From Peptococcaceae bacterium BICA1-8 (GTDB lineage Bacteria; Bacillota; Peptococcia; Peptococcales; BICA1-8): DNA of 64,000 nt. How positions within the stretch are numbered: position 1 is the first letter of the stretch; every line of letters starts with the position of its first letter. Positions 5,498-61,405 of the stretch are shown one piece after another. The stretch spans positions 8,287-72,286 of the forward strand of contig JUEF01000135.1 of assembly GCA_000802045.1 (NCBI GenBank), written 5' to 3'. A program made the position numbers and the translations under genes. The notes under the pieces are model-generated. The model had not been told where the DNA came from. It was given only the letters and a program-made list of their open reading frames with translations, and searched no databases.

Positions 5498-6865
5498 ATG
5501 CCAATTTCCATTACTACAGAAGAAATATTAGAAACTATTCGGATGGTGGAGGCTGAGAATCTCGATATCCGTACAATTACTATGGGAATTTCTTTACGGG
5601 ACTGTGCCCATTCTGACCTAAAAGTTACCTGTAGAAAAATATATGATAAGGTGACCCATACAGCAGGAGATCTGCTAAAAGTAGGAGCACAAATTGAGGC
5701 AGAATATGGAATACCCATTATAAATAAAAGAATCTCTGTTACTCCTATTGCCATTGTGGCGGAAGCGTGTGAGGCGGAAAATTATGTTGATATAGCTATA
5801 AGTCTTGATAAAGCAGCCAAAGAGGTCGGCGTGAATTTTATCGGAGGTTTTTCCGCTTTAGTACATAAGGGATTAACCAAAGGTGATGAGAAGCTAATCT
5901 ATTCTATACCTCAAAGCTTGGCCCAAACAGAAAGAGTTTGTGCTTCTGTTAATGTTGCCACAACTAAAGCAGGCATCAATATGGACGCTGTAAAAATAAT
6001 GGGAAGAATAATTAAAGAAACAGCAGAATTAACCAAAGAAAAAAATGGCTTGGGTTGTGCAAAACTGGTAGTTTTCTGTAATGTACCAGAAGACAATCCC
6101 TTTATGGCCGGAGCCTTTCATGGTATTGGCGAACCGGAAGCAGTTATTAATGTAGGTGTCAGTGGCCCCGGGGTTATCTTAAATGTAGTCAGAGCAAACC
6201 CTGATATTACCTTTGGTGTGCTAGCTAGCAGGATTAAGGAAACTGCCTTTAAAATAACTAGAATGGGAGAATTAGTGGGTAAGCAAGCGGCTAGAAGATT
6301 AGGTCTTCCTTTTGGTATTGTTGACCTTTCTCTAGCTCCTACTCCTGCCGTCGGTGACAGTGTTGCTGATATTCTAGAAGCTATGGGTCTGGAAAGATGT
6401 GGAACCCACGGAACAACGGCTGCCTTAGCCATGCTTAATGATGCGGTAAAAAAAGGTGGGGCTATGGCATCTTCTTATGTAGGAGGTTTAAGTGGTGCGT
6501 TTATTCCCGTTAGTGAAGATGCAGGGATGATTAGGGCCGTTGAAGAGGGTGCCTTAGATATAAATAAATTAGAAGCCCTGACCTGTGTCTGTTCTGTTGG
6601 ATTGGATATGATTGCAGTACCAGGTGATACCAGTGCTGCAACTCTTTCCGCAATTATTGCCGATGAAGCAGCTATTGGAATGATCAATAAGAAAACCACT
6701 GCTGTTCGAATTATTCCTGTTCCAGGTAAGCAGGTAGGTGAGATGGTAGTCTTTGGCGGGTTATTAGGACGTGCTCCTATTATGCCTGTAAATAAATTTA
6801 GCTCGGAAAGCTTTATTAATCGAGGAGGCAGGATACCAGCACCTATCCATGCCCTAAACAACTAA
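5498..6865 (+). CDS. UPF0210 / PFL-like (DUF711) family protein
   Basis: 455 aa. N-terminus [30 protein letters not shown] is typical of UPF0210. Coupled to the ACT gene. Confidence 0.9.
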
Positions 6866-6890
6866 AGATTATTTTTAAGTTATTAGCTTT

Positions 6891-6921
6891 TACCGTCCTA
6901 AGCAGGGCGGTATTTTTTTTT
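6891..6921 (+). terminator. Intrinsic terminator
   Basis: 9-bp stem TACCGTCCT/AGGGCGGTA, loop AAGC, followed by T9. Confidence 0.85.
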
Positions 6922-6962
6922 CTTAAATGGGGAAAATATCACTAAGATGGGGAGGAGTTAGG

Positions 6963-7259
6963 GTGCTAAACACTAACAAAAAAATCGAAGATTTGCTTAA
7001 AAAATTATCACTAGATATGGAAAAAATGAAATTAGCCGAATATATTGAGCTCCTAAATAACCCCAAAAGACTTCTTTGGGTAAATTTTATTGCAGGGGTT
7101 GCTAGAGGATTAGGTACCGCTATAGGATTTACAATTCTTTTTGCAATAATTCTTTACTTTTTGCAGAAACTAGTATTGTTAAAGCTACCTCTGATAAGTG
7201 ATTTTATAGCAGATATCGTAAGGATGGTACAAAACAATACTAGAATTCCTAAATATTGA
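6963..7259 (+). CDS. Small membrane protein (DUF5665-like)
   Basis: Motif NFIAGVARGLGTAIGFTI plus a TM helix. GTG at 6963 is preferred because of the GGAGGAG RBS 5 nt upstream; the ORF track starts at 6927. Confidence 0.6.
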   Translation: MLNTNKKIEDLLKKLSLDMEKMKLAEYIELLNNPKRLLWVNFIAGVARGLGTAIGFTILFAIILYFLQKLVLLKLPLISDFIADIVRMVQNNTRIPKY

Positions 7260-7278
7260 GAAGAGGAAGGTATTATGT

Positions 7279-8004
7279 ATGGACAATCTAAAACAAAAAA
7301 AATATAAAGACCTATTGGAAAAACTTAAAGGGGAGTATAGTGAATTAATTAACTCATTAGAACAAGGATTAAATGATCCAATGAGTTGGACAACTTCAGA
7401 GCTCTCTTTATATGATAACCATCCTGCTGATGTAGCTAGTGAAGTTTATGAAAGAGGGAAAGACATCGGCTTTAAAACTTACGCTTTAGAGCAGATTGAA
7501 AAGGTAGAAGATGCTTTAGAAAGATTAGAACAAGGGAAGTATGGCACTTGTGATAAATGCGGCCAGTTTATTCCTGAAGAAAGGCTAGATACAATTCCCT
7601 TAACAACAATGTGTGTTAAATGTCGAAAAGAGGAATGGGAGGATGGAACCCAATATAACCTAAAAGCCAGGAGACCTGTAGAAGAAGAAGTGGTAATGCC
7701 GCCCTTTGGTGGGGAAACCAACGATACCTTTGAAGACAAATTAGGACAAGGATTAGATCTTAATGAATTCGATGGCGAGGATTCTTGGCAAGCCGTTGCC
7801 CGTTATGGCACTTCTGAGTCCCCTAGTGATATAGGAAGTGTCCTCAATTATAACAATACATATTATGATTATGATGAGGATATAGGAACAGTGGAGACGT
7901 ATGAACAGATTCCCGTATACAAGGATGAGGATGGGCAGTTTTATCAAGATTTTAAAGGATTAGATGATGAGGATGGACCACCCGATGCCCATGATGAAGA
8001 TTAG
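7279..8004 (+). CDS. DksA/TraR C4 zinc-finger protein, YteA/YlyA-like, with acidic C-terminal tail
   Basis: CDKCGQFIPEERL...CVKC zinc finger. Position upstream of lspA matches Bacillus ylyA synteny. Confidence 0.8.
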   Translation: MDNLKQKKYKDLLEKLKGEYSELINSLEQGLNDPMSWTTSELSLYDNHPADVASEVYERGKDIGFKTYALEQIEKVEDALERLEQGKYGTCDKCGQFIPEERLDTIPLTTMCVKCRKEEWEDGTQYNLKARRPVEEEVVMPPFGGETNDTFEDKLGQGLDLNEFDGEDSWQAVARYGTSESPSDIGSVLNYNNTYYDYDEDIGTVETYEQIPVYKDEDGQFYQDFKGLDDEDGPPDAHDED

Positions 8005-8014
8005 GTAATCTATT

Positions 8015-8599
8015 ATGTATTTATATGCGGATCGAATTATACTCCAAATATTAGCATTTTCCTTAGGACCATTTTTAGGATTACTAACCGCAGCATTTGT
8101 TAACCCTTGGGCAGGTATAATTATTGGACTGACAGCCTTTATATTTATATTTTTTCAGCCGTTTTTTTCTGATTGTTGCTTGAAAAATACTGCAAAAGAC
8201 CTCGGGTTAGAAAAAATATTACTAGCTGAAGGTAATGTAAAGTATTATTCCAGAAGTTTAGATTTAACAGGAAAACTATATCTTTGTCGGGACAAGATAA
8301 CCTTCGTCATAAATAATAAGGTGGACATTATTCTGCCAGTAGAAAAAATTTTAAAGGTGCAGGGGGAAACTGAGCAAATCGATGAGGAAGCTCTCAAGTT
8401 AACTCCTATGTTTGAACGAAGATCCCCCAATCTTCCTCAAGTTACTCAGATGGTTACGGAAATAGCTGTGTTAAACTGTGGTATCTTACAGATAACTGTT
8501 GAACAGAGTATTTTTAGCAATGAATTCTGCTTCGAGGTATCTGATATTAATCTATGGGTAAAAAAGGTAATTGAACTACAAAAAAGCCGGGCGCTGTAA
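8015..8599 (+). CDS. Hypothetical membrane protein (two N-terminal TM helices plus a soluble domain)
   Basis: ORF with a hydrophobic N-terminus. No family recognised. Confidence 0.55.
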   Translation: MYLYADRIILQILAFSLGPFLGLLTAAFVNPWAGIIIGLTAFIFIFFQPFFSDCCLKNTAKDLGLEKILLAEGNVKYYSRSLDLTGKLYLCRDKITFVINNKVDIILPVEKILKVQGETEQIDEEALKLTPMFERRSPNLPQVTQMVTEIAVLNCGILQITVEQSIFSNEFCFEVSDINLWVKKVIELQKSRAL

Positions 8600-42875: not shown

Positions 42876-43259
42876 GTGTGGTTATTAGCATATTGGTGGC
42901 AAGCTTTAATATTAATACTTTTATATAGTTTCCTGTTTTTAGTTTATAAAGAAATGAACAGAGAACATTTTAGAGAGCCTGCCGCCATACTTATGGTAAC
43001 TCAAGAGCCAATGGGCATAGAGGTAAATATATTTTCGGTAGGTCAAGCACTTTTAATATACCCTCAAGAACCTTTAGAAATACAGGATGAAAAAATATAT
43101 GTCCACAATGAAAATATTATTTTAGAGCGTAAAGGTGAAATAAAAAAGATATCTGCTGGAGAAGTTTTCGATTTTGCAGGTGGTACTCTAGAGCTGGTGA
43201 GGTGGAATAATGCACGTCAACTCATTAACAAATATCGGGCTGGTACGAAAAGCCAATGA
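42876..43259 (+). CDS. Hypothetical membrane-anchored protein (127 aa) overlapping the stp start by 50 nt
   Basis: GTG-start ORF with one N-terminal TM helix. No family recognised. Sits where FHA-domain proteins sit in related clusters. Confidence 0.45.
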   Translation: MWLLAYWWQALILILLYSFLFLVYKEMNREHFREPAAILMVTQEPMGIEVNIFSVGQALLIYPQEPLEIQDEKIYVHNENIILERKGEIKKISAGEVFDFAGGTLELVRWNNARQLINKYRAGTKSQ

Positions 43260-43932
43260 GGATAGTTTTCTCACTGACAAAAACAGAGGCCTTTTTGTGG
43301 TTGCTGATGGTATGGGAGGTCATGAAGCAGGAGAACTGGCAAGCAGCATAGCCATCAAAACATTAGACGATTTTTTAACCAGGGAAGTAATTACTAATCA
43401 AAAAAGTAAGGGCTTATGTCAGGCTATTCAGAAAGCTAATGAACTGGTTAATGAAGAATCCAGATTAAATACTAATTGCGCAGGTATGGGTACCACTATT
43501 ACAGCTGCTTTATTAATTGATAATATGCTATATATCGCGCATATTGGCGATAGCCGGGCTTATCTTGTTAGGGACAAAACGATTAGTTTATTGACAAAGG
43601 ATCATTCTCTCGTAGGAGAATTATTAAGACAGGGAGAGTTGACGGAAAGTGAAGCATATAGACATCCCCATCGTAATATTCTAACCCGAGCCTTAGGGAC
43701 AGAACGGGAAGTAGAAATTGACCAAGTAGAAATAAAAATAAACCCCGGGGATTTACTCCTTTTATGTACAGATGGTCTTTATAATTTAGTACATGATAAT
43801 GAAATTTTAAGGGAAATTATTCATAATAGCAGTGATATGAAAAAATCAGTAGATCAATTAGTACAAATAGCCCTTGACCGAGGAGGAGTCGATAATATTA
43901 CGATTATTTTGGTAAGTTGTGATGAGCAATAG
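43210..43932 (+). CDS. stp: PP2C-family Ser/Thr phosphatase
   Basis: TNIGLVRKANEDSF, VADGMGGHEAG and DNITIILV motifs. GAGGTGG RBS. Confidence 0.9.
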   Translation: MHVNSLTNIGLVRKANEDSFLTDKNRGLFVVADGMGGHEAGELASSIAIKTLDDFLTREVITNQKSKGLCQAIQKANELVNEESRLNTNCAGMGTTITAALLIDNMLYIAHIGDSRAYLVRDKTISLLTKDHSLVGELLRQGELTESEAYRHPHRNILTRALGTEREVEIDQVEIKINPGDLLLLCTDGLYNLVHDNEILREIIHNSSDMKKSVDQLVQIALDRGGVDNITIILVSCDEQ

Positions 43933-46504
43933 AATAAAGAGCAATATCTTCCTCTATTTGGCGGTTTTTATGGGGCTAGCTGGGTATATGTCTTTATCAA
44001 TTCATTTAGATTGGATGCAAAAATTATTTCTTCCTACTTTAATTTTAATATTTATCCTCTATCTAACCTTTTTTGCTGTGAAACACATCATGGGGGAAGT
44101 AAACATTCTGTTTTCATTGGTTACCTTTATGGTTATTATTGGCTGGCTGATTCTTATCAGATTACAGCCTCAGTTGGCATTAAGGCACTTGCTTTGGATA
44201 GCTTTGGGTTGTTTACTACTGATCGTATTTTTAAAAACTTTACATATATTACCCAATGATTTTATTTTAAAACACAAATTTTATTGGCTTTTACTAACTC
44301 TTGTTTTACTTCTTATACCTTTAGAGTTTGGGATTAGAATTGGTGGAGCTAAAAGTTGGGTGGATATCTTTGGCTTGCGTTTTCAGCCTTCAGAAGTCGC
44401 CAAACTCTCTTATCTGGTTTTTTTGGCCAGTTGGTTTAAAGATAATGCAAGGGGCGCATGGCAAAAGTCGTGGCCTGCCTGGTTGGGTACAATTGGCTGC
44501 ATAGCCTTACTTGTTTTACAAAGGGATTTAGGAACAGCCTTGATTTTCTATTTAGCATTTTTATTAATCTTATATCTGACATCAGGTAAATTACAGTATT
44601 CTTTTCAAGGCCTATTACTTTTAATAATCGGTTCAATAATTGCATATTTTTCTTTTACCCATGTTCGAGTTCGGGCCATAAGTTGGCTTAATCCTTGGTT
44701 GGAACCCGAAGGCAATGGATATCAAATTATCCAATCCCTTTTTGCTTTAGCCAATGGTGGGATTGTGGGAATGGGTTTAGGTGGTGGTTTCCCTAATAAT
44801 ATTCCTGAAGCACACACTGATTTCGTTTTTGCTGTAATCGGTGAACAGTTAGGTTTACTAGGAGCTACTGGTGTAGTTTTACTGTATCTATTTTTTGCCT
44901 TTTTTTCTTTGAAAAGGGCTCAGTTTATTTCTACTTTTGGGAGTAGGCTTTTGGCCTCAGGGTTAACTTTTGTGCTGGTAGTCCAAGCATTTGTAATAAT
45001 GGGTGGGGTTACGAAGCTGATTCCTTTAACTGGTTTACCCCTTCCCTTTATGGGCTATGGAGGCAGTTCCACTATTAGCAGCTTTGGCATGTTAGGAATT
45101 ATTATCTGGTTAGGTAGGGAAAAAGGTTTTGTATCATCAATGTCCAGAAGCCGATTAATCAATATTAATAAGCTGATTTGGTTTGTTTTTCTCCTCCTAA
45201 TATTGAACCTAGGATATTGGCAGGTAATAAAGGCACAAAATTTGATCGAGCATCCATTTAATGCTAGATCCCGACTTGTGGAAAAATTTACAACCAAAGG
45301 AGTTATTTATGCCGCTGATGGTTCTTTGCTAGCTGGAAATAATGATGAAGGTAACATTCGTTATTATCCTTTAAAAGAAGCGGCTGCTCATATTACGGGC
45401 TATGATTCATTAAAATATGGTAAAGCCGGATTAGAAAGTTCTTTAAATTCATTTTTATACGCAAAAACTCTGCTTAAACCAGGATTTATAGATAGAAAAA
45501 GTGTTGGATGGAATGTATACACCACTATTAATTCAGAATTACAAAAAACAGCATGGTTATTACATAGAGAAAAGGCAGGAGCATCTGTTGTAATAGAAGT
45601 AAAAACAGGTAATATATTAGCACTGGTTTCTAACCCCTCCTATGACCCTAACAGCCTATTAAAAGAATGGGAAAATTATATAGAAAATGAAAGTGGAGTT
45701 TTTTTAAATAGAGCAACTCAAGGCTTATATCCACCTGGTTCAGTGTTTAAAATTATCTCTGGTACAGCCTTATTACGATTAAAACCAGAGGTGGCACGAG
45801 AGTCAAGCTTTATAGAACCACAGATAAATGCTGGCGGTTATGTAATTAAAGATATGTTATACAGATCTAATTTAACTTTTCAAGAGGCTTTAGGTTATTC
45901 AAGTAATCTGTTTTTTGTTAAACATTTTCTTGACTTAGACTGGGAAGATGTTGCCCAGGAATTGCAAAATAGTTTTATGATTTCCAATGATTTTTCTAGT
46001 AAAGAAATCCCTCTTGCTAAGGCTCAACTTGGAAAAGTAATTGATCAAGTTGATGTAGCCTTTACTGTCATCGGACAGGGAGAAGTAGTTGTTACTCCTT
46101 TGCACATTGCAATTTGGGCTGGGGCTATAGCCAATGCGGGATTAATATTGCAGCCTAATATTATAGATAGAATTGTTGATCAGCATGGAATAATCATCGA
46201 AAAGAAAAAGCCCACTGTTTTAGGCAGAGCTTGTTCAGAGGAAAATGCCCAACTTGTTCTGGAAGGTCTAAAATACTCTGTTCAATCAGGAACCGGCAAA
46301 AATGCCAAAATCCCTGGTATGTCCATTGGCGGCAAAACAGGAACGGCTGAAAATATTCATGGTGATCCCCATGCTTGGTTTGTAGGTATAGGCCCTCTGG
46401 AGGATCCTAAAATTGTAGTAGTTACAATTGTAGAAAACGGGGGAAGAGGCGGGGACGCAGCTCTTCCAATAGCGAAAAGTTTGATAGAAGGAGCCCTTCG
46501 GTAA
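43919..46504 (+). CDS. Fusion protein: SEDS glycosyltransferase (RodA/FtsW) plus class B penicillin-binding transpeptidase
   Basis: Residues up to about 410 are polytopic SEDS (…GLPLPFMGYGGSS…). An extra TM helix follows, then a PBP domain with SVFK (SxxK), SSN (SxN) and KTGT motifs. Single uninterrupted 861-aa ORF. Confidence 0.85.
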   Translation: MMSNRIKSNIFLYLAVFMGLAGYMSLSIHLDWMQKLFLPTLILIFILYLTFFAVKHIMGEVNILFSLVTFMVIIGWLILIRLQPQLALRHLLWIALGCLLLIVFLKTLHILPNDFILKHKFYWLLLTLVLLLIPLEFGIRIGGAKSWVDIFGLRFQPSEVAKLSYLVFLASWFKDNARGAWQKSWPAWLGTIGCIALLVLQRDLGTALIFYLAFLLILYLTSGKLQYSFQGLLLLIIGSIIAYFSFTHVRVRAISWLNPWLEPEGNGYQIIQSLFALANGGIVGMGLGGGFPNNIPEAHTDFVFAVIGEQLGLLGATGVVLLYLFFAFFSLKRAQFISTFGSRLLASGLTFVLVVQAFVIMGGVTKLIPLTGLPLPFMGYGGSSTISSFGMLGIIIWLGREKGFVSSMSRSRLININKLIWFVFLLLILNLGYWQVIKAQNLIEHPFNARSRLVEKFTTKGVIYAADGSLLAGNNDEGNIRYYPLKEAAAHITGYDSLKYGKAGLESSLNSFLYAKTLLKPGFIDRKSVGWNVYTTINSELQKTAWLLHREKAGASVVIEVKTGNILALVSNPSYDPNSLLKEWENYIENESGVFLNRATQGLYPPGSVFKIISGTALLRLKPEVARESSFIEPQINAGGYVIKDMLYRSNLTFQEALGYSSNLFFVKHFLDLDWEDVAQELQNSFMISNDFSSKEIPLAKAQLGKVIDQVDVAFTVIGQGEVVVTPLHIAIWAGAIANAGLILQPNIIDRIVDQHGIIIEKKKPTVLGRACSEENAQLVLEGLKYSVQSGTGKNAKIPGMSIGGKTGTAENIHGDPHAWFVGIGPLEDPKIVVVTIVENGGRGGDAALPIAKSLIEGALR

Positions 46505-46516
46505 AGAGGTGGTAGC

Positions 46517-48418
46517 ATGATAGGAAAAAAAATAGGAAATAGATACGAAATATTAGCCCTTATCGGTGGAGGGGGTATGTCTTTAGTTTATCAAGCTAAA
46601 GATATATATTTAAATCGTATTGTGGCTGTAAAGATATTAAGGGAATATTTTACAAGTGACAATGAGTTTGTTCGGCGTTTTAGGCGAGAGGCTCAGGCAG
46701 TTGCCAGTTTATCCCATCCTAATATTGTAAATATTTATGATGTGGGTCAAGATGGAGATACCCATTATTTAGTGATGGAATATATCAAAGGTAAAACCTT
46801 AAAAGAGATAATTATTGAACAAGCTCCGATATCTCTAAATGAAACTATTGATATTGTTAAACAGATATGTGATGCCTTGGAACATGCTCATGAAAACTCT
46901 ATTGTCCATAGAGATATAAAACCCCATAACATCATCATAACTCGGGGTGGACGGGTCAAGGTAACGGATTTTGGTATTGCCAGGGCTGTAAGCACAGCTA
47001 CTGTTACCCATACTCGAGGTATAATAGGTTCTGTTCACTATTTTTCACCAGAGCAGGCTAAAGGTGAGGTTACCGGCGAAAAATCCGATATTTATTCACT
47101 GGGTATTGTCCTTTACGAAATGGTTACCGGTAAGCTTCCCTTTGAAGGGGAGTCACCTATTAGTGTTGCTTTAATGCATATTCAAAGTGAACCAGTGCCA
47201 CCATCTAGACACAATCCCAATCTTACCGATAATATTGAAAAGATTATTTTGAAAGCTATCAAGAAGAATCCTGATGAAAGATATGAAACAGTGGCTAAAC
47301 TTCGGTTAGACTTAAGGGCCTCACTGTTAGGGAAAATATCAGCCCCTGTTGGTGACGCTGGTGACCAACAGGTATTTAGGAATAAAAAATCAGTACAAAC
47401 TGTGTCAGATGATACCTTGGTACTTGATGATAAACCAAGCTTGAAAAATAAACCACCAGAAAAACAACATGGGGAAAAAACTAGAAAAATAAGACCTCTG
47501 GGATATTTGCTCTTAACGCTTCTAAGCCTATTAATTATTGGAGGAGCCATTTGGGGGCTGGGGAAGCTTTGGGTAAAAGAAGAAATTCTGGTTCCAGATA
47601 TTATTGAGCTGTCTGCACCTGAGGCTCAACGGATTCTTGCGGCTGAAAACCTGAAAATGGCCATTGAGAGAGAGATTCCTCATCCTGACATAAAGAAGGA
47701 TCATATTATTAGTCAAGACCCTCTTCCTGAAACAAGAACAAAATCGGGACGTACTATTCAGGTGCTAGTAAGCTCTGGACCTGCCTTAGTCCCAGTACCA
47801 AATGTTGTAGGCAGTTCCCAAATTATTGCTGATGTCAATATTACTAACGCTGGATTGACTGTCGGCAAGGTAGAGCAGCAATACAGTTCTCAATATGCAA
47901 ATGGTATAGTAATGGGTCAGTATCCTGAAGCAGGTGGGCTGGTTCCAGAAAAAAGTTCTATCGACCTTGTAGTTAGTAAGGGTCCCGAACCTCGTAATAT
48001 CTCAATGCCCCCTTTAATTGGGTTGGATTTAAATAACGTAGAAGCGAGGCTTCAGGAAACAGGATTGGAATTAGGTGAAATAACTAGACAAAAAAGTGAA
48101 TTATATCCCTATGATTTTGTTATAGAACAGAATCCTATGGCGGGTAAAGAGGTAATTCAAGGCTCAAAGGTTAACCTGGTGCTAAGTGATGGTCCAGGGC
48201 CTTCAACTCAGTCAGCTAGGGTAGTCCTTAAATTAAATGAATCAGGGCAAGTCAAAATCCAGGTACGGGATGTAAAGGGCGATAGGATTGCCTATGAAAA
48301 ATACCATGAACAAGGGGATGCCTTTGTTGTAAATGTTAATTATTTTGGGCAAGGACTCATAACAGTATATATTGATGATAAAAAGATTAAAGAACAAGTA
48401 GTGCCATCGGAACAATAA
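46517..48418 (+). CDS. pknB: PASTA-domain Ser/Thr protein kinase
   Basis: Hanks kinase motifs (VAVK, HRDIKPHN, DFG), a TM helix and three PASTA repeats. Confidence 0.9.
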   Translation: MIGKKIGNRYEILALIGGGGMSLVYQAKDIYLNRIVAVKILREYFTSDNEFVRRFRREAQAVASLSHPNIVNIYDVGQDGDTHYLVMEYIKGKTLKEIIIEQAPISLNETIDIVKQICDALEHAHENSIVHRDIKPHNIIITRGGRVKVTDFGIARAVSTATVTHTRGIIGSVHYFSPEQAKGEVTGEKSDIYSLGIVLYEMVTGKLPFEGESPISVALMHIQSEPVPPSRHNPNLTDNIEKIILKAIKKNPDERYETVAKLRLDLRASLLGKISAPVGDAGDQQVFRNKKSVQTVSDDTLVLDDKPSLKNKPPEKQHGEKTRKIRPLGYLLLTLLSLLIIGGAIWGLGKLWVKEEILVPDIIELSAPEAQRILAAENLKMAIEREIPHPDIKKDHIISQDPLPETRTKSGRTIQVLVSSGPALVPVPNVVGSSQIIADVNITNAGLTVGKVEQQYSSQYANGIVMGQYPEAGGLVPEKSSIDLVVSKGPEPRNISMPPLIGLDLNNVEARLQETGLELGEITRQKSELYPYDFVIEQNPMAGKEVIQGSKVNLVLSDGPGPSTQSARVVLKLNESGQVKIQVRDVKGDRIAYEKYHEQGDAFVVNVNYFGQGLITVYIDDKKIKEQVVPSEQ

Positions 48419-50176: not shown

Positions 50177-50212
50177 GCCCCGAAGCTCTTATTGCTTCGG
50201 GGCTTATTTGTG
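50177..50212 (+). terminator. Riboswitch expression-platform terminator
   Basis: GCCCCGAAGC-TCTTATT-GCTTCGGGGC followed by TTATTTGTG. Confidence 0.75.
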
Positions 50213-53926: not shown

Positions 53927-54127
53927 AGTGATAGTGAAAAGTTTAATTATGAAGGATTTTGCTTTCCATGGGCGAATATTTTATAGTTAAGAATTTTCAG
54001 GAAAAATGCTAATGATTATAAATATAAATATAAATATTATGTGAAAAATGGTACCAACAAATTTAAGTTAGGCGTATAATTTGCTTATATGTTTATTAAA
54101 TTAAAGACAGGAAGGAGAGTAGATAAT

Positions 54128-55819
54128 ATGTATGACAAAGAGAAATTAGAAAAGATTAAACAAGACAATCGTAATTATGAAGCCGATTGGGAAAAAGGTG
54201 TTGAAAAACTAGCAGCTAAAGGTAAAAAGGGAGAGCGCAAGGATAAATTTGTGACAGGCTCAGGAGCTTCTGTAAATCAACTTTATACGCCCTTAGATAT
54301 TGATATTGATTATAGAAGTGAGATTGGTTTTCCCGGACAATACCCCTTTACTAGAGGGGTACAGCCTAATATGTATAGGGGTCGTTTCTGGACTATGCGT
54401 CAGTATGCCGGCTTTTCCTCGGCAGAAGAATCCAATGCTCGTTATAAATATTTATTAGAACAGGGTCAAACAGGGCTTTCCGTAGCTTTTGACCTACCAA
54501 CCCAAATAGGTTATGACTCAGATCATCCTATGTCTGAAGGTGAAGTAGGCAAAGTCGGAGTTGCCATTGACTCTTTAGCTGATATGGAAATTTTATTTAA
54601 CGGGATTCCTTTGGATAAAGTAAGTACCTCAATGACGATTAATGCACCTGCTTCTGTTTTATTGGCTTTTTACATAGCGGTTGGTGAAAAACAGGGTGTT
54701 ACACCAGATAAATTAAATGGTACAATTCAAAATGATATACTAAAAGAATACTCAGCTCGGGGAACTTATATCTTTCCGCCTACCCCATCCATGCGTTTGA
54801 TTACAGATATTTTTGACTTTTGTACTAGGAATGTCCCAAATTGGAATACAATTAGTATTTCTGGTTATCACATTAGAGAAGCAGGTTCAACTGCTTCTCA
54901 GGAAGTAGCCTTTACTTTAGCTGATGGTATTGCTTATGTTAATGCGGCTATTATTGCCGGGTTAGATGTTGATACCTTTGCTGGACGTTTATCATTTTTC
55001 TTTAACGCTCACAATGACCTGTTAGAGGAGGTTGCTAAATTTAGAGCTGCCCGCCGAATATGGGCTAAGCTAATGAAGGAACGTTTCAAGGCAAAAAGTG
55101 AACGTTCTATGATGCTCCGTTTTCATACTCAAACAGGGGGCTCAACCCTTACTGCACAACAGCCAGATAATAATATTGTTCGGGTTGCCATTCAAACCTT
55201 GGCTGCAGTACTAGGTGGCACCCAATCCTTACATACTAACTCAAAAGATGAAGCGTTAGCACTACCTGCAGAAGATTCAGTTCGCATAGCATTACGTACA
55301 CAACAAATTGTTGCCTATGAAAGTGGTGTTACTGAGACAGTAGATCCATTAGCTGGTTCATATTATGTAGAAGCTTTAACAAAGCGTATTGAGGATGAAG
55401 CCTGGGCTTACATCAATAAAATTGATGAATTAGGAGGAGCTGTTAAAGCAATAGAGCAGGGCTATATTCAAAAGGAAATTCAGGATGCTGCATATGAATA
55501 CCAAAAAGAAGTTGAAGCTGGCAAACGGGTTGTTGTCGGTATGAACAAATTTCAGATAAAAGAGAAACCACCCCAAGGACTTTTAAGAGTAGATCCAAGT
55601 ATGGGTTTTTTACAGGCTAAAAAGGTTGCGGAAATGAAGTCAAAGCGGGATGGTAATATGGTCCAAGCTATCCTTGATGAACTAAGGTCAGCAGCAAAAG
55701 GCAATGATAATATGATGCCCATCATGCTGAAGGCTGCCAAAGCTTATTGTACTGAGGGTGAAATATGTGATGTACTACGGGAAGTATTTGGTGAATACAC
55801 ACCAATTCAGGTACTTTAA
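54128..55819 (+). CDS. Methylmalonyl-CoA mutase, catalytic (large) subunit
   Basis: [10 protein letters not shown] and RQYAGF motifs. ATG at 54128 lies after GGAAGGAGAG; the ORF track starts at 54089. Confidence 0.9.
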
Positions 55820-55841
55820 TATCTGGTATTAGGAGGTTAGT

Positions 55842-56243
55842 ATGATGACTGAGAGGAAAATTAGAGTCCTGGTTGCTAAGCCAGGCTTAGATGGTCATGA
55901 TCGTGGTGCAAAAATAATTGCCCGTGCTTTTCGGGATGCTGGTTTTGAAGTTATCTATACAGGATTAAGGCAAACTCCTGAACAAATAGTTGCTGTTAGT
56001 ATTCAAGAAGACGTTGATGTGGTGGCTATTAGCTTATTATCCGGTGCCCACGGGACTTTGATGCCTAAAGTGGTTAAATTATTGCGAGAAAAGGGTGCAG
56101 ATGACAAACTAATAATCGGAGGTGGAGTAATACCAGATGATGATATTCCCGCTCTAAAAGAGGCGGGAGTAGCGGAAATATTTACTCCTGGCACACCTAC
56201 CTCTGTTCCCATTGAATTTATTAAAGCCAATGTCAGGCAATAA
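55842..56243 (+). CDS. Methylmalonyl-CoA mutase, cobalamin-binding (small) subunit
   Basis: B12-binding DxHxxG motif: [10 protein letters not shown]. Confidence 0.9.
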
Positions 56244-56273
56244 GATGATATTCTAGTAAAAGGCGGTGGAATA

Positions 56274-57212
56274 ATGGATTTGGTGCAACTGGTTAAGGAA
56301 GGCAATCGTGTTGCTATCGCCCGCCTCATAACAAAAGCTGAAAATGAAGCCCCAGAAGCCGCCATAGCCATGCGGCAACTTTATTCCGAAACAGGTAAGG
56401 CTTTTTTGATAGGCATCACTGGACCTCCAGGTTCAGGGAAAAGTACCTTGACCGACAAAATGGTTAAAGAGTTGCGTAAAAGAGGTAAGACTGTTGGAGT
56501 AATTGCTGTTGATCCCAGTAGTCCCTTTACTGGTGGGGCAATTCTTGGTGATAGAATTCGCATGTCAGATTTAGCTTTGGATGACGGGGTATTTATCAGA
56601 AGCATGGGCACAAGAGGCAGTTTAGGGGGCCTTTCCAAAGCAACCTATGATACTATAAAAATATTGGATGCTGCTGGATTTGAGTATATTTTAATTGAAA
56701 CTGTTGGTGTAGGCCAGTCGGAAGTTGATATTGTCAAGACTGCTGATACAACAGTTGTAGTTTCTGTTCCAGGGTTAGGTGATGATATTCAAGCTATAAA
56801 GGCTGGTATAATGGAGATCGGTGATGTATTTGTTGTCAATAAAGCTGATCGCGAAGGAGCAGAAAGAGTAGTTATAGAATTAGCTCAAATGCTGGAACTC
56901 AATGCAAATATGGGCGATTGGTTCCCGCCGATTCTAAAAACTGTAGCTGTCCGCAATGAAGGTATTGTGGAAGTAGTGGATAAGATTATGGAGCATCGAG
57001 AATTTTTGACATCTTCAGGTGAATTGCGCAACCGAAGAAAAGAAAGAATTAGTAATGAACTTTTTAATCTTATTTTAAAAAAGGTGTCAGCTAAAATTTC
57101 CACTAAGCTTTCTGAGGAAAATTTTTGGGATAGTCAACTGGATGAGATTATAGAAAATCAGAAAAATCCCTATGATGTTATAGACCGTGTTATAGACGGG
57201 ATATTACAATAA
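56274..57212 (+). CDS. meaB: Methylmalonyl-CoA mutase-associated G-protein chaperone (ArgK/MeaB)
   Basis: P-loop GPPGSGKST and NKAD specificity motif. Confidence 0.9.
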   Translation: MDLVQLVKEGNRVAIARLITKAENEAPEAAIAMRQLYSETGKAFLIGITGPPGSGKSTLTDKMVKELRKRGKTVGVIAVDPSSPFTGGAILGDRIRMSDLALDDGVFIRSMGTRGSLGGLSKATYDTIKILDAAGFEYILIETVGVGQSEVDIVKTADTTVVVSVPGLGDDIQAIKAGIMEIGDVFVVNKADREGAERVVIELAQMLELNANMGDWFPPILKTVAVRNEGIVEVVDKIMEHREFLTSSGELRNRRKERISNELFNLILKKVSAKISTKLSEENFWDSQLDEIIENQKNPYDVIDRVIDGILQ

Positions 57213-57250
57213 AAATTTGGTTAAATTTAATCAAAGGAGGTTAAAATGGG

Positions 57251-57655
57251 ATGCAGGTTTTAAAAATAGATCATATTGGAATTGCTGTAAAAAACTTAGA
57301 AGAAAGTCTAAGTTTTTATACTGATGTTCTAGGTCTTAAATGTCAAGGAATAGAACTAGTTGAAGAACAAAAAGTAAAAGTTGCTTTTCTACCTTGTGGT
57401 GAAAGTGAACTAGAATTATTGGAATCGACATCACCTGAGGGACCAATAGCAAGATTTATTGAAAAAAATGGCGAGGGTATTCAGCATATTGCTCTACAAG
57501 TTGAGAACATTGAAGAAGCATTAGAATATCTAAAAGAGCAGGGTATGCGTCTAATAGATGAAAAACCCCGTTATGGTGCCGGTGGGGCTAAGATAGCCTT
57601 CCTTCACCCGAAAGCTACAAAAGGAATACTTTTAGAGTTATCTGAAAGGGCGTAG
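57251..57655 (+). CDS. mce: Methylmalonyl-CoA epimerase (VOC/glyoxalase fold)
   Basis: IDHIGIAV...GIQHIAL pattern, 134 aa, in the mutase/decarboxylase cluster. Confidence 0.88.
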
Positions 57656-57692
57656 ATTATATTTTAGAAAGAAGTGAGGGGAGTTTCCAAAC

Positions 57693-59243
57693 ATGAGTAC
57701 TCGAGCAAAATTAGAAGAACTACGGTTAAGAAACCAAGAAATTGAGCTAGGTGGTGGCGCCAAGGCCATAGAAAAACAGCATGAGCGAGGTAAATATACG
57801 GCTCGCGAGCGTTTAACGCTGCTTTTTGATGAAGGCTCTTTTACGGAGCTGGATAAGTTTGTTACACACCGCTGCGTTAATTTTGGTATGGAAAATATTT
57901 CTACACCAGCTGAAGGTGTTGTTACCGGTTATGGTACTATTGATGGAAGATTAGTTTATGCTTTTGCTCAAGACTTTACAGTGGTAGGTGGTTCTTTAGG
58001 AGAAATGCATGCCAAGAAAATCTGTAAAGTATTAGACTTAGCGTTAAAAATGGGCGCTCCCTGTATTGGTATAAATGATTCTGGTGGAGCCCGAATCCAA
58101 GAAGCGGTAGATGCTCTTAGCGGTTATGGTGATATTTTCTATCGAAATACTATTGCTTCCGGTGTAATACCGCAGATTTCTGTAATTATGGGACCCTGTG
58201 CAGGGGGAGCGGTATACTCCCCAGCAATAACCGATTTTGTATTCATGGTTAAAAATACTTCTCAAATGTTTATAACCGGACCGCAGGTTATTAAGGCAGT
58301 AACCGGAGAAGAGGTAAGTGCTGAAAAGCTAGGTGGAGCCATGACTCATAACAGTGTTAGTGGGGTTGCTCACTTTGCCGCAGAAAATGAAGAAGACTGC
58401 ATATTGCAGATCCGGGCTTTACTAAGCTATATTCCCAACAACAATTTAGAGGAAGCACCAGTCTTTGATACCGGTGATGATCCTGAACGTCGGGATGAAA
58501 CTCTAAATGATATTATACCCGATAACCCCAATGCTCCTTATGATATCAAAGACGTAATAATAAAAATTGCTGATAGTGGCGAGATCTTTGAAGTGCAGCC
58601 CTATTATGCTCAGAATATAGTCACCGCCTATATCCGACTAAATGGGAAAAGTATAGGAGTTATAGCCAACCAACCCAAATTTATGGCTGGTTGCTTAGAC
58701 ATTAATGCTAGTGATAAATCAGCAAGATTTATTCGTTTCTGTGATGCTTTCAATATTCCAATATTAACTGTAGTAGATGTTCCAGGATTTTTACCTGGGG
58801 TCAACCAGGAATTTGGCGGTATAATTCGCCATGGTGCTAAAATGCTCTATGCTTATTCGGAAGCAACTGTACCCAAAGTTACCTTAATTACCAGAAAGGC
58901 TTATGGGGGAGCTTATATCGCGATGTCTTCACGCCACCTGGGAGGTGACCAGGTAATTGCCTGGCCTACAGCTGAGATTGCCGTTATGGGTGCTGGAGGT
59001 GCTGCAAACATCATTTTCCGTAAGGATATTGAAGCTGCTCAAGATAAAGAAGCCAAACGAACTGAAATAATTAAGCAGTATGAAGAACGATTTGCTACAC
59101 CTTATGTTGCCGCTGAAAGAGGTTATGTGGACATGGTTATCGAGCCTGCTGTAACAAGACCAGTTCTAATAAACGCTTTTGAAATGCTATCTACCAAACG
59201 GGAAACCCGTCCTGCCAAAAAACACGGCAATATTCCTTTGTAA
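57693..59243 (+). CDS. mmdA: Methylmalonyl-CoA decarboxylase alpha subunit / acyl-CoA carboxyltransferase
   Basis: 516-aa carboxyltransferase fold (GGARIQE, GPCAGGAVYSPA). Confidence 0.9.
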   Translation: MSTRAKLEELRLRNQEIELGGGAKAIEKQHERGKYTARERLTLLFDEGSFTELDKFVTHRCVNFGMENISTPAEGVVTGYGTIDGRLVYAFAQDFTVVGGSLGEMHAKKICKVLDLALKMGAPCIGINDSGGARIQEAVDALSGYGDIFYRNTIASGVIPQISVIMGPCAGGAVYSPAITDFVFMVKNTSQMFITGPQVIKAVTGEEVSAEKLGGAMTHNSVSGVAHFAAENEEDCILQIRALLSYIPNNNLEEAPVFDTGDDPERRDETLNDIIPDNPNAPYDIKDVIIKIADSGEIFEVQPYYAQNIVTAYIRLNGKSIGVIANQPKFMAGCLDINASDKSARFIRFCDAFNIPILTVVDVPGFLPGVNQEFGGIIRHGAKMLYAYSEATVPKVTLITRKAYGGAYIAMSSRHLGGDQVIAWPTAEIAVMGAGGAANIIFRKDIEAAQDKEAKRTEIIKQYEERFATPYVAAERGYVDMVIEPAVTRPVLINAFEMLSTKRETRPAKKHGNIPL

Positions 59244-59358
59244 AAACTGACTAAGTGTCAGTTTTAAGGCTAAGGCTAAGGCCTGTGTTTATGTGTTTCC
59301 ATTGTTGTATATTTCTGGGCACTGAACACCAGTCACCGGGCACGATAACCCGAAAAAT
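59243..59358 (+). repeat. Repeat insertion inside the mmd operon: hairpin, AAGGCT x3 and a CTGGGCACTG...CACGATAACCCGAAAAAT cassette
   Basis: AAAACTGAC-TAAGT-GTCAGTTTT (59243-59265). AAGGCTAAGGCTAAGGCC (59266-59283). Cassette at 59315-59358. Confidence 0.85.
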
Positions 59359-59404
59359 CCACTATCACACTAAAACACTTACGTTACAAGGAGGGGATTA
59401 CAGA

Positions 59405-59749
59405 ATGATAATATATGGGTTAAAGGTTGCTTTGTTAGGGATGGGTATAGTTTTTGTCGCATTATTAATTTTGATGTTTTTGATTCAGGTCCAATCCAGT
59501 TTCCTAGCACCAAAGCCCAAAAGGAAAGAAGAACTGAAAATAGCAGATAACTCTAATAAAGAACAGTCACTGGCTGTTGAAATAGTAGAAAATGATGATA
59601 CTGATGAAATTGCAGCAGTAATCTCGGCAGCCATAGCCGCCTGTGGTCAACAGGTTGTTATCAAAGCTATTACTCGTATTTCCGGAACAGACGGTTCGGC
59701 TTGGGCCCAAAGAGGTCGTACTGAAGCTATGAACCTGCGTCAACTATAA
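59405..59749 (+). CDS. OadG-like gamma/delta subunit of the Na+-translocating decarboxylase
   Basis: N-terminal TM helix LKVALLGMGIVFVALLILMFLI. ATG at 59405 lies 7 nt after GGAGGGG. The listed ORF start at 59255 reads through the repeats. Confidence 0.7.
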   Translation: MIIYGLKVALLGMGIVFVALLILMFLIQVQSSFLAPKPKRKEELKIADNSNKEQSLAVEIVENDDTDEIAAVISAAIAACGQQVVIKAITRISGTDGSAWAQRGRTEAMNLRQL

Positions 59750-59775
59750 TAAAGCAGATTGGAAGGAGAATGAAG

Positions 59776-60162
59776 ATGAGAAAGTTTAACATAACTGTTA
59801 ATGGAAAAACCTATGAAGTAGAAGTGGAAGAAGTGGGGGGGGTTGCAGCTCCAGTTAGAATGGCACCAATTAGTGCACCTAAAGCTAGCGTACCAGCTGC
59901 GCCAACCCCGGCAGCAGCACAACCTAAGACTCAAGCTCCGGTAACTGGTGGAGAATCGGTAACAGCTCCAATGCCCGGTAAAGTATTTAAGGTTATTAAA
60001 GGCGAGGGAACGCAGGTTAAAAATGGCGAAGTAGTTATGATTTTAGAAGCGATGAAAATGGAAAACGAAATTACAGCTCCTGTAGATGGGACTGTTCAAC
60101 AAATCACGGCCAAAGAAGGAGCTGCCGTTAATCCTGGTGATGTTTTGTTTATAATTGGCTAG
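59776..60162 (+). CDS. mmdC: Biotin carboxyl carrier subunit
   Basis: Biotinylation motif EAMKMENEI and an Ala/Pro-rich linker. ATG at 59776 lies 7 nt after AAGGAG. Confidence 0.85.
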   Translation: MRKFNITVNGKTYEVEVEEVGGVAAPVRMAPISAPKASVPAAPTPAAAQPKTQAPVTGGESVTAPMPGKVFKVIKGEGTQVKNGEVVMILEAMKMENEITAPVDGTVQQITAKEGAAVNPGDVLFIIG

Positions 60163-60229
60163 TGCTCCTATAGGACAAGCATTAATACCAATAACTTTTT
60201 AAAGCAGAGAGAGGAGTTGAACTAGCTTA

Positions 60230-61405
60230 ATGGATTACCAAATGGACCTGGGTAAGGCTCTTATACAGCTTATTAATAGCACAGGTTTTCTGACTATCAG
60301 TATAGGGCAAATAATAATGATAATTATATCTTTTATTTTATTATATTTGGCCATTGTTAAAAAATACGAACCATTACTTTTATTACCAATAGCTTTTGGA
60401 ATGCTGTTAACTAACTTTCCGGGAACTGGGATTATGGATCCACCCATCTATGACCCTAATGACTCACATAATGTATTGCAACCAGGGGGCTTGCTTTACT
60501 ATTTATACTTGGGAGTAAAGTTAGGTATTTATCCTCCCTTAATCTTCTTAGGTGTAGGGGCAATGACCGATTTCGGTCCCTTAATTGCAAATCCAAAAAC
60601 ATTGCTTTTGGGTGCAGCTGCCCAATTTGGTATATTCACAACTTTTATTGGTGCACTTTTTTTAGGTTTTACTCCCCAAGAAGCTTCTTCTATAGGTATA
60701 ATTGGTGGAGCTGACGGTCCAACGGCTATTTATTTAACAAGTAAACTAGCACCCCACCTTTTAGGGCCGATAGCTGTTGCTGCTTATTCCTATATGGCCT
60801 TGGTACCTATTATCCAGCCGCCAATTATGAAGGCTTTAACTACTAAAAAGCAGCGTCAGGTGGTTATGGAACAGTTACGTCCTGTTTCCAAGGTGGAAAG
60901 AGTTGTTTTCCCCATCATGGTTAGTATAGTTTGTGTTTTGTTCTTACCAAGTGCTGCACCATTAATTGGCATGCTCATGCTAGGGAACCTTTTTAGAGAA
61001 TCAGGTGTTGTAGAACGATTGAATGATACTGCCCAAAATGCCTTAATAAATATTGTAACTATCGCTTTAGGCACAACTGTAGGGGCAACTGCAACGGCAG
61101 CAAAGTTTTTGACACCTGCAACTCTTAAGATAATTGTTATGGGCTTGCTAGCCTTTTCCATTGGAACGGCTGCCGGGGTACTTTTAGGTCGTCTAATGTA
61201 TGTACTGACTGGTGGAAAAGTAAATCCTTTGATTGGTTCTGCAGGAGTGTCTGCTGTACCTATGGCTGCAAGGGTTTCGCAGGTAGTGGGACAAAAAGAA
61301 AATCCCCGCAATTTCCTATTAATGCATGCCATGGGACCTAATGTCGCCGGTGTTATCGGTTCTGCTGTGGCAGCAGGTGCCCTTTTATCCTTATTTGGTA
61401 GTTAA
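60230..61405 (+). CDS. mmdB: Na+-translocating decarboxylase beta subunit (OadB/MmdB family)
   Basis: Polytopic, 391 aa, with conserved OadB-family regions ([24 protein letters not shown]). Confidence 0.9.

Follow-up and report, generated by a model that had tools for sequence, protein, structure and literature searches.

Members of the SEDS family (shape, elongation, division, sporulation) polymerize lipid II and need a cognate penicillin-binding protein of class B (bPBP), contact between the two being made through the bPBP transmembrane (TM) helix and pedestal. A stretch of 64,000 nucleotides from Peptococcaceae bacterium BICA1-8 (positions 8,287 to 72,286 of contig JUEF01000135.1, assembly GCA_000802045.1; the whole stretch is referred to here as the window) raises the question of whether the two partners can be encoded as one polypeptide, and what such a polypeptide would do. 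An original prediction, made from the letters of the window, claimed that a gene flanked by a protein phosphatase gene (stp) and a PASTA-domain kinase gene (pknB) encodes an uninterrupted, 861-residue covalent fusion of a SEDS protein with a bPBP, and the open reading frame (ORF) listing, Pfam searches and alignments bear this claim out. We consider the best overall explanation, with a probability of about 0.85, to be a single-chain peptidoglycan synthase that is bifunctional and belongs to the RodA/PbpA type of Actinobacteria.

Domain architecture of the fused protein

The fusion gene is a single ORF of 861 codons plus a stop codon, free of internal stops, with GTG as its start codon (the next ATG lies at 43922). 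By direct reading, its start and the stp stop codon overlap by 14 nt, and pknB begins after a gap of 12 nt. Pfam searches identified three domains in the encoded protein: PF01098 (FTSW_RODA_SPOVE; residues 85–400, E 2.6e-71, 240.9 bits against a cut-off of 26.4), PF21922 (PBP_dimer_2, the N-terminal domain of Mycobacterium tuberculosis PbpA; residues 461–514, E 3.9e-08, 33.9 bits against 27), and PF00905 (transpeptidase; residues 554–857, E 2.3e-44, 152.3 bits against 22.1). Each match exceeds its gathering score and is thus far beyond chance. AlphaFold2 (AF2) modeling, which the original prediction had proposed as a check, was run on a 108-sequence alignment and returned a single confident chain, with a mean predicted local distance difference test score (pLDDT) of 93.3 and a predicted template-modeling score (pTM) of 0.82.

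The N-terminal half has the ten-helix polytopic core of a SEDS protein, both ends of which are cytoplasmic in the topology predicted from the AF2 model and alignments. The AF2 helices of this core, from 63–82 to 382–398, map onto TM1–TM10 of RodA, and the string GLPLPFMGYGGSSTISSFGMLGIIIWLGREKG, quoted in the original prediction as the end of the SEDS part, was found at residues 372–403. Alignment with Thermus thermophilus RodA (6BAR) places its residues E108, K111, D152, and D255 opposite E159, K162, D203, and D301, the last pair corresponding to the catalytic aspartate of extracellular loop 4. In all 108 fused homologs, the equivalents of these four residues are either unchanged or conservatively replaced. 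The core is preceded by two additional TM helices (hydropathy peaks at residues 10–28 and 36–54; AF2 helices 2–29 and 31–58), and solved RodA and FtsW structures (8TJ3_B, 8BH1, 8P1U, 6BAR, and 6PL5) align to the fusion only from residue ~63 onward. Since the extra helices number two, the N-in topology is preserved. They are kept across orthologs, yet show the weakest constraint in the gene, with a ratio of nonsynonymous to synonymous substitution rates (dN/dS) of 0.36.

The C-terminal half has the hallmarks of a class B PBP, namely a single N-in anchor (helix 407–437) followed by a non-catalytic N-terminal module (PF21922). The classical PBP_dimer pedestal, PF03717, as found in PBP2 and FtsI, gave no match in the fusion protein and only faint matches in its orthologs; the presence of PF21922 together with the missing PF03717 match assigns the protein to the PbpA subtype. 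Residues 446–860 align with M. tuberculosis PBPA (3UN7, 3LO7; E ~1e-41), and P446 and N448 are invariant in the alignment of fusion relatives. The transpeptidase motifs SVFK, SSN, and KTG(T) claimed in the original prediction are present at residues 608–611, 661–663, and 806–809, and fall in the catalytic columns of the alignments with PBPA and Atopobium parvulum 4JBF. With the catalytic residues aligned in both halves, both active sites are intact. Foldseek comparison of the PBP half with 3UPP, 4R3J, and 4MNR gave target-normalized template-modeling scores (TM-scores) of 0.83–0.88, those for M. tuberculosis PBPA being 0.83–0.86. The structural matches include transpeptidase domains of Coriobacteriia that were crystallized with beta-lactams bound, and the beta-lactam complexes of the Atopobium and M. 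tuberculosis homologs suggest that the fusion, too, would be acylated by beta-lactams.

Constraint on the junction and reality of the fusion

The two halves are joined by a short, basic cytoplasmic loop of ~8 residues (GREKGFVSS), five lysines or arginines occurring in residues 400–418, which leads into the bPBP anchor. In the AF2 model the anchor is one continuous helix (407–437), ending in a conserved YWQV...HPxNxR juxtamembrane motif; the anchor string LIWFVFLLLILNLGYW quoted in the original prediction lies at residues 419–434. Hydropathy and the order of AF2 helices agree with the claimed topology, in which the C terminus of the SEDS part is cytoplasmic and the bPBP anchor is oriented N-in. 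The linker and anchor align with the N termini of separately encoded PbpA proteins, which share the pattern M-basic-TM-Y(W/F)Q. Compared with an ortholog of 89% identity, the junction codons (residues 399–445, n = 47) have a dN/dS of 0.057 at a synonymous rate (dS) of 0.65, the strongest constraint in the gene, the whole-gene dN/dS being 0.14. The constraint on the junction acts in the fused frame.

Sequencing or assembly error, in the form of a frameshift or a lost stop codon between real rodA and pbpA genes, has practically no chance of explaining the fusion. Short A5/T4 runs do occur within the junction DNA, and relatives in other orders are often two adjacent or overlapping genes: in a family-profile search that listed 80 species-representative GTDB loci, with no close Peptococcales genome among the matches listed, the SEDS and PBP halves were separate adjacent genes in 59. 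Against this stands a protein of 100% identity, flanked by the same neighbors, on an independently assembled Logan contig (SRR1539101), for which the gene caller placed the start at M18. Orthologs fused in the same frame occur in at least five other samples at 56–89% identity, among them single ORFs of 858–861 residues in ERZ21838773, JGI 3300001682, GCA_049366715, and ERZ795095 (89%, 67%, 61%, and 56% identity, respectively), all in the context rlmN-ORF127-stp-fusion-pknB-rsgA. The linker and TM helix are moreover kept at the protein level, and, with clustering at 50% identity, at least 131 clusters have the architecture. An artefact is excluded by the independent assemblies, the fused orthologs, and the junction dN/dS taken together, and the confident single-chain AF2 model is a fourth line of support for a real fusion. 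The original prediction had raised the prospect of a frameshift or stop at the junction, or of a fusion unique to this assembly; instead, the junction recurred in independent assemblies under purifying selection, and fused orthologs proved numerous.

Prevalence of natural fusions

Contrary to the rarity implied by the original prediction, the fusion is neither rare nor unique. A word-indexed search returned 496 relatives at E<=1e-20, and nearly all of the best 120 were proteins of 800–950 residues with the architecture PF01098+PF21922+PF00905. The source names of these relatives include Peptococcales, Coriobacteriia, Chloroflexota, and Anaerolineae, and JGI labels some of them 'FtsW/FtsI'. When 1.84 billion representatives at 50% identity were searched exhaustively, fused length was seen in 131 of the 150 best matches; here the clade of the window protein formed a single cluster, its next relatives having 38–39% identity.

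Such proteins have also been published. A 2025 survey, 'A global view of morphogenetic peptidoglycan synthases across the domain Bacteria' (PMC12516126), describes 117 InterPro proteins combining a SEDS glycosyltransferase with a bPBP transpeptidase, and names them putative bifunctional class B synthases. The examples given there are a 931-residue fusion of transpeptidase, PBPA_dimer, and glycosyltransferase domains from Senegalimassilia faecalis (Coriobacteriales) with genes for a Ser/Thr kinase and a phosphatase on its flanks, a protein from Rhodococcus jostii, and one from Pedobacter, the latter likewise with a kinase and a phosphatase at its sides; the text of the survey makes no mention of a representative from Peptococcaceae (Bacillota). 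The window fusion has the features by which this class is defined, an N-terminal glycosyltransferase and a transpeptidase in one uninterrupted ORF, and it shares with the S. faecalis example the stp and pknB genes directly on its flanks, a feature of that subtype. Excised pieces of such proteins have been in the Protein Data Bank (PDB) since 2013, as the Eggerthella lenta 'D,D-transpeptidase domain of peptidoglycan glycosyltransferase' (4MNR) and the beta-lactam-bound A. parvulum structures (4JBF, 4R0Q, and others). Over its C-terminal half, from just past the anchor onward, a fused protein from Coriobacteriia aligns to 4MNR (E 1e-124) and 4JBF (E 1e-114), indicating that these structures are the soluble halves of natural fusions. 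With hundreds of database proteins and at least 131 clusters, the window gene is a further example of documented natural SEDS–bPBP fusions rather than an enzyme of a new kind.

The Coriobacteriia fusions resemble the window protein in carrying the three Pfam domains in identical order and in having an identical phosphatase/kinase setting, and Coriobacteriia proteins match its PBP half best in both structure and sequence. They differ in being Actinomycetota rather than Bacillota proteins of ~31% identity that are 70–100 residues longer (at the N terminus and in the linker), and the window cluster, unlike theirs, is embedded in an rlmN...rsgA-rpe housekeeping operon. Class A PBPs also unite both activities of peptidoglycan synthesis, including a penicillin-binding transpeptidase, in one polypeptide; their glycosyltransferase (GT51), however, has an unrelated soluble fold with one TM anchor and is moenomycin-sensitive, in contrast to the polytopic SEDS domain of the fusion. 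The likeness to class A PBPs is therefore one of analogy, not homology.

Relation to split rodA and pbpA genes

Where the two halves are encoded separately, the genes usually share a few nucleotides (ATGA, TGATG). Because the split genes overlap, and because the N termini of the separate PBPs align to the linker, the fusion can be read as a simple read-through join of translationally coupled genes. In split loci of Actinomycetota, stp lies upstream and pknB downstream (stp-rodA-pbpA-pknB). Fused counterparts of this order were found in a metagenome-assembled genome (MAG) of Limnochordales, where rlmN-stp-fusion-pknB is arranged as in the window, and in a Coriobacteriia MAG (stp-fusion-pknB).

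One close counterpart is the M. tuberculosis operon, whose gene order is fhaA-fhaB-pstP-rodA-pbpA-pknA-pknB, with RodA as Rv0017c and PbpA as Rv0016c. The window locus resembles it in its PbpA-type PBP (PF21922 plus PF00905) and in the small membrane protein encoded upstream, and it shares with Actinomycetota loci the order phosphatase, SEDS protein, PBP, PASTA kinase. In contrast to M. tuberculosis, where rodA and pbpA are two separate genes and pknA accompanies pknB, the window has one ORF and a single kinase, and its upstream small ORF lacks a recognizable sequence signature of the forkhead-associated (FHA) domain.

Operon setting

The gene order around the fusion is gmk, coaBC, metK, priA, def, fmt, a DUF116 gene, a Zn-peptidase gene, rsmB, rlmN, ORF127 (a small ORF of 127 codons), stp, the fusion, pknB, rsgA, and rpe, and the region is a housekeeping operon of the Bacillota type. 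The neighbors named in the original prediction (a small membrane ORF, a PP2C phosphatase, and a PASTA kinase) were found at 42876–43259, 43210–43932, and 46517–48418 (Table 1). A strong terminator-like hairpin follows rpe, and a consensus scan for terminators between def and rpe detected no site comparable to it; the hairpin likely marks the end of the transcription unit holding the fusion. Overlapping genes and the lack of an internal terminator place the fusion within this operon.

The outer frame, rsmB-rlmN...rsgA-rpe, is of the Bacillus type, in line with the gene order of B. subtilis. The locus is therefore this frame with an FHA-like/SEDS/PbpA module inserted, and not an alternative to it. 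The original prediction had described the arrangement as actinobacterial rather than B. subtilis-like, and this is correct for the module, as judged from PF21922, from the best structural matches to PBPA and Coriobacteriia proteins, and from the Actinomycetota loci. It does not apply to the outer frame, and its equation of the small ORF with fhaB is weakly supported.

Downstream of the operon, at 54089–61405 on the forward strand, lies a cluster encoding a methylmalonyl-CoA mutase, MeaB, a carboxyltransferase, and the gamma and beta subunits of a Na+-translocating decarboxylase. It looks like a decarboxylation pathway of the succinate/propionate type and is unrelated to the fusion.

Table 1. 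Features of the fusion gene, its neighbors in the window, and variant relatives in other genomes (L, locus; P, protein).
Feature	Position	Strand	Basis
ORF127, 127-residue membrane ORF between rlmN and stp	42876..43259	+	ORF listing, AF2, Foldseek
stp, Stp1/IreP-type PP2C Ser/Thr phosphatase	43210..43932	+	NF033484 280.7 bits (cut-off 230); PF00481/PF13672
Whole fusion gene: SEDS glycosyltransferase, linker/TM, PbpA-type pedestal, transpeptidase	43919..46504	+	ORF, Pfam, alignments, AF2
Residues 1–60, two additional N-terminal TM helices before canonical SEDS TM1	43919..44098	+	Hydropathy, AF2, alignments
Residues 61–398, 10-TM SEDS core	44099..45112	+	PF01098, 6BAR alignment, AF2; dN/dS 0.106
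Essential/catalytic SEDS residues E159; K162; D203; D301	44393–44395; 44402–44404; 44525–44527; 44819–44821	+	
Residues 399–437, junction: short basic cytoplasmic loop and bPBP anchor helix	45113..45229	+	AF2, alignments, dN/dS
Residues 438–553, juxtamembrane HPxNxR motif and PbpA-type dimerization/pedestal-like module	45230..45577	+	PF21922, PBPA alignment
Residues 554–861, penicillin-binding transpeptidase domain	45578..46501	+	PF00905; dN/dS 0.164
Transpeptidase motifs S608-V-F-K611; S661-S-N663; K806-T-G-T (806–809)	45740–45751; 45899–45907; from 46334	+	
pknB/stk1, PASTA-domain Ser/Thr kinase	46517..48418	+	NF033483 698.8 bits (cut-off 450); Pkinase and 3 PASTA stretches
Terminator-like hairpin after rpe	50177..50203	+	10-bp stem, 8 G-C pairs, T-rich tail; consensus scan only
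474-residue SEDS proteins P0025, P0016, P0041	L001 8001–9425 (Desulfonispora thiosulfatigenes GCA_900176035); L002 8001–9425		
Fusions with degenerate transpeptidase, proteins P0046–P0120	L009, L011–L014, L017, L020–L022, L024, L025, L027–L029, L032, L035; ORFs ~5700–8500		

ORF127 and FHA neighbors

ORF127 is 100% identical to JM58_16865 and is conserved in all orthologous loci. It gave no Pfam match at E<=10, and five orthologs gave no match to the FHA domain (PF00498) at the same threshold. The AF2 model (pLDDT 77.9) has a helix at residues 2–31, an N-terminal TM segment, followed by eight strands over residues 37–109 that form a small all-beta domain, predicted to be a beta-sandwich, and the top Foldseek matches were mostly FHA domains, though weak (E 0.1–1, TM-score 0.4–0.5). 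Alignment with hhalign to a genuine TM+FHA neighbor protein covered the TM helix only, and the phosphothreonine-binding GR...SxxH...NG residues were not among the invariant residues in alignments of the ORF127 family. Classification as an FHA protein by sequence is therefore ruled out by the Pfam and hhalign results, both negative. Given its size, its modeled fold, and its location in the FhaB slot of actinobacterial clusters, ORF127 may plausibly be a degenerate FhaB-like protein.

Genuine FHA proteins were observed beside the SEDS–PbpA module elsewhere, even at loci without stp and pknB. In Thermoanaerobacterium thermosulfurigenes, where the module sits between uvrA and uvrC, a TM+FHA protein is encoded directly upstream of the split pair (locus L019, 5459–5860), and in Leptolinea sp. 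HRD-7 two FHA proteins are encoded ~2 kb upstream of the fusion (locus L014, 2797–4052). The FHA neighbors in these two organisms extend an FHA–SEDS–PbpA module to at least three phyla, which suggests an ancient unit common to Bacillota, Actinomycetota, and Chloroflexota.

Truncated relatives and degenerate transpeptidases

The closest non-fused relatives of the window protein, at 41–49% identity, are SEDS proteins of 474 residues from Desulfonispora thiosulfatigenes (GCA_900176035) and from two metagenomic sources. Their synteny is rlmN-ORF126-stp-SEDS-pknB-rsgA-rpe, with pknB starting 3 nt later and no PBP gene following. Both N-terminal helices, the SEDS core, the linker, the anchor helix of the PBP, and the HPxNPR motif are all present in these proteins, which end ~25 residues past the membrane helix/HPxNPR region; a C-terminal 'P-x-S-x-x-K' that aligned with the SxxK motif was treated as a MAFFT alignment artefact. 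A neighbor-joining tree of the SEDS core unites them with 95% bootstrap support and makes the fused Peptococcales clade their sister group; the next outgroup is fused as well. The parsimonious reading is that they descend from a fused ancestor by loss of the PBP ectodomain, with the anchor retained; since bootstrap support for their placement beside the fused clade is weak (32% and 21% at the deeper nodes), this scenario rests mainly on the synteny and on the retained helix and motif. Engineered RodA carrying only the PBP2 TM helix (to residue 47) is strongly stimulated compared with RodA alone (PMC10449877), and the 474-residue proteins would be a natural counterpart of that construct.

A second group of relatives keeps the fused length and has lost the transpeptidase motifs. 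In a first alignment, SxxK, SxN, and KTG were all lost, with the SEDS residues retained, in 67 of 108 fused proteins; among fused cluster representatives, which were not taxonomically assigned, the three were missing from 51 of 131 (~40%). An independent alignment of named genomes located the loss in Anaerolineales, Anaerolinea, Leptolinea sp. HRD-7, Caldilineaceae, Chloroflexia, and Chloroflexus, all of them Chloroflexota, and found the motifs intact in fusions from Limnochordales, a Clostridiales MAG, Coriobacteriia, and an Actinomycetota MAG. The Leptolinea transpeptidase is still recognized by PF00905, weakly, at 42.8 bits versus 152 in the window protein. A full-text search of one literature collection found no paper on Chloroflexi SEDS proteins with a catalytically inactive transpeptidase. 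A Chloroflexota-like fusion with a degenerate transpeptidase was also observed on a 13-kb contig of a gammaproteobacterial MAG labeled Cellvibrionaceae (locus L010, 3272–5863); it probably reached this MAG by a binning error and does not represent a genuine gene of Proteobacteria.

These variants, which are more unusual than the window fusion itself, suggest that the conserved core of the family is the SEDS protein together with the non-catalytic N-terminal part of the bPBP. They may form a natural deletion series with the window protein at its intact end, running from full-length proteins (Peptococcaceae, Coriobacteriia, and others) through those with a dead transpeptidase (Anaerolineae, Chloroflexia, Caldilineae) to those with only an anchor (the Desulfonispora group). 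We tentatively raise the possibility, itself somewhat doubtful, that the tether has been kept mainly for activation or stabilization of the SEDS domain by the bPBP helix and pedestal, and not for coupling polymerization to cross-linking.

Proposed function and alternatives

A bifunctional synthase of this kind would work as follows. The SEDS domain would polymerize lipid II into glycan strands, and the PbpA-type domain would cross-link the stem peptides. The gene would have arisen by read-through joining of adjacent, translationally coupled rodA-like and pbpA-like genes, such that the short cytoplasmic tail of the SEDS part runs directly into the PBP's N-in membrane anchor. The tether would fix a 1:1 ratio and, assuming docking on SEDS TM8/TM9, may keep the activating PBP helix and pedestal docked on the polymerase in cis. 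Stp and the PASTA kinase, with whose genes the fusion is co-transcribed, probably tune its activity or localization to cell-wall precursors. The shared transcription suggests that PknB and Stp may regulate the fusion by Ser/Thr phosphorylation, as is the case for the mycobacterial cluster.

Engineered fusions provide a precedent for such a protein. E. coli RodA joined to PBP2 through a (GGGS)3 linker restores rod shape and polymerizes lipid II in vitro (PMC6207328), fused SpoVE–SpoVD is functional in B. subtilis sporulation (cited in PMC6207328), and the cryo-electron microscopy structure of E. coli RodA–PBP2 was obtained from a fusion construct (PMC10449877). The window protein resembles the RodA–PBP2 complexes and fusions (T. 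thermophilus 6PL5/6PL6, E. coli 8TJ3) in the connection of the SEDS C terminus to the bPBP N terminus and in its conserved SEDS catalytic residues. It differs from the engineered proteins, which have artificial linkers and a PF03717 pedestal, in its natural 8-residue loop and shorter PbpA-type pedestal, and the identity between its SEDS part and those of the engineered or solved proteins is ~25–30%.

Several observations weigh against the assignment to a bifunctional RodA/PbpA-type synthase. The protein misses every NCBIfam equivalog cut-off: 200.1 versus 336.7 bits for RodA (TIGR02210), 232.2 versus 337.5 for FtsW (TIGR02614), 191.2 versus 448.8 for SpoVE (TIGR02615), 218 versus 455 for MrdA (TIGR03423), and 130 versus 688 for SpoVD. 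Assignment to the RodA, FtsW, SpoVE, or MrdA orthogroup was accordingly ruled out, and the N-terminal half is best filed as a SEDS protein, not specifically as RodA, FtsW, or SpoVE. Orthologs do not share the serines and threonines of the cytoplasmic linker, which makes the loop an unlikely candidate for a conserved phosphosite of PknB. The linker also contains an in-frame ATG (M408, 45140–45142) with AAAGG 13 nt upstream, from which a free PBP could be made, its product MSRSRLININKLIWF... resembling native PbpA N termini. Together with the partial cleavage within the linker of purified RodA–PBP2 fusions (PMC6207328), this start raises the idea that the gene is fused while the cell mostly makes two proteins, by initiation at M408 or by proteolysis of the loop. 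We regard this as improbable. The position of M408 is occupied by V, F, S, or H in orthologs, ruling out a conserved internal start; the loop is only ~8 residues long and is followed by a continuous helix of high pLDDT, making it a poor protease target; and the strong purifying selection on the loop in the fused frame would be unneeded if the halves were made separately.

The place of the enzyme in the cell cycle and the role of its PBP half also admit other readings. Some Peptococcaceae form endospores, and in Bacillota PASTA kinases signal germination in response to muropeptides, so a spore-related synthase acting in germination, outgrowth, or the cortex, as an analogue of SpoVE–SpoVD, could be imagined in place of one for vegetative elongation or division. 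PMC12516126 likens flanking by a Ser/Thr kinase and phosphatase (STK/STP) to spoVD/spoVE contexts, and the functional SpoVE–SpoVD fusion mentioned above points the same way. A spore role nevertheless seems unlikely to us, since the SpoVE and SpoVD scores are far under their cut-offs, the same module occurs in non-sporulating Actinomycetota, Coriobacteriia, and Chloroflexota, and the operon is a housekeeping one (def-fmt-rsmB-rlmN...rsgA-rpe). For the window protein, it is very improbable that the PBP half acts as a scaffold or activator without catalysis of its own, as in the Chloroflexota fusions, leaving the cross-linking to other enzymes. The idea draws on the frequent motif loss among fused cluster representatives with retained SEDS residues, on the closest SEDS-only relatives, which retain just the PBP TM helix, and on the stimulation of RodA by the PBP2 TM helix alone (PMC10449877). 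The window protein and its whole clade, however, keep S608/K611, S661/N663, and K806-T-G, the transpeptidase domain has evolved under constraint (dN/dS 0.164), and its PF00905 score of 152 bits compares with 43 in Leptolinea. A bifunctional, single-chain synthase of the RodA/PbpA type thus remains our preferred reading.

Implications

In genome annotation, the gene would be better described as a bifunctional SEDS–PbpA-type peptidoglycan synthase than as an 'FtsW/RodA/SpoVE family cell cycle protein'. The locus places the actinobacterial pstP-rodA-pbpA-pknB module, in fused form, inside a Bacillota rlmN-stp-pknB-rsgA operon. Since engineered fusions were needed for the E. coli complex, natural synthases made as one chain lend themselves to structural and biochemical studies, and the present 97-kDa example, with its confident model and very short natural linker, could serve this purpose. 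The truncated and dead-transpeptidase variants bear on which part of the bPBP activates the SEDS protein and on whether transpeptidase activity is dispensable. If the tether is indeed kept mainly for activation or stabilization, whole lineages would build their wall with a SEDS protein whose 'partner' never cross-links.

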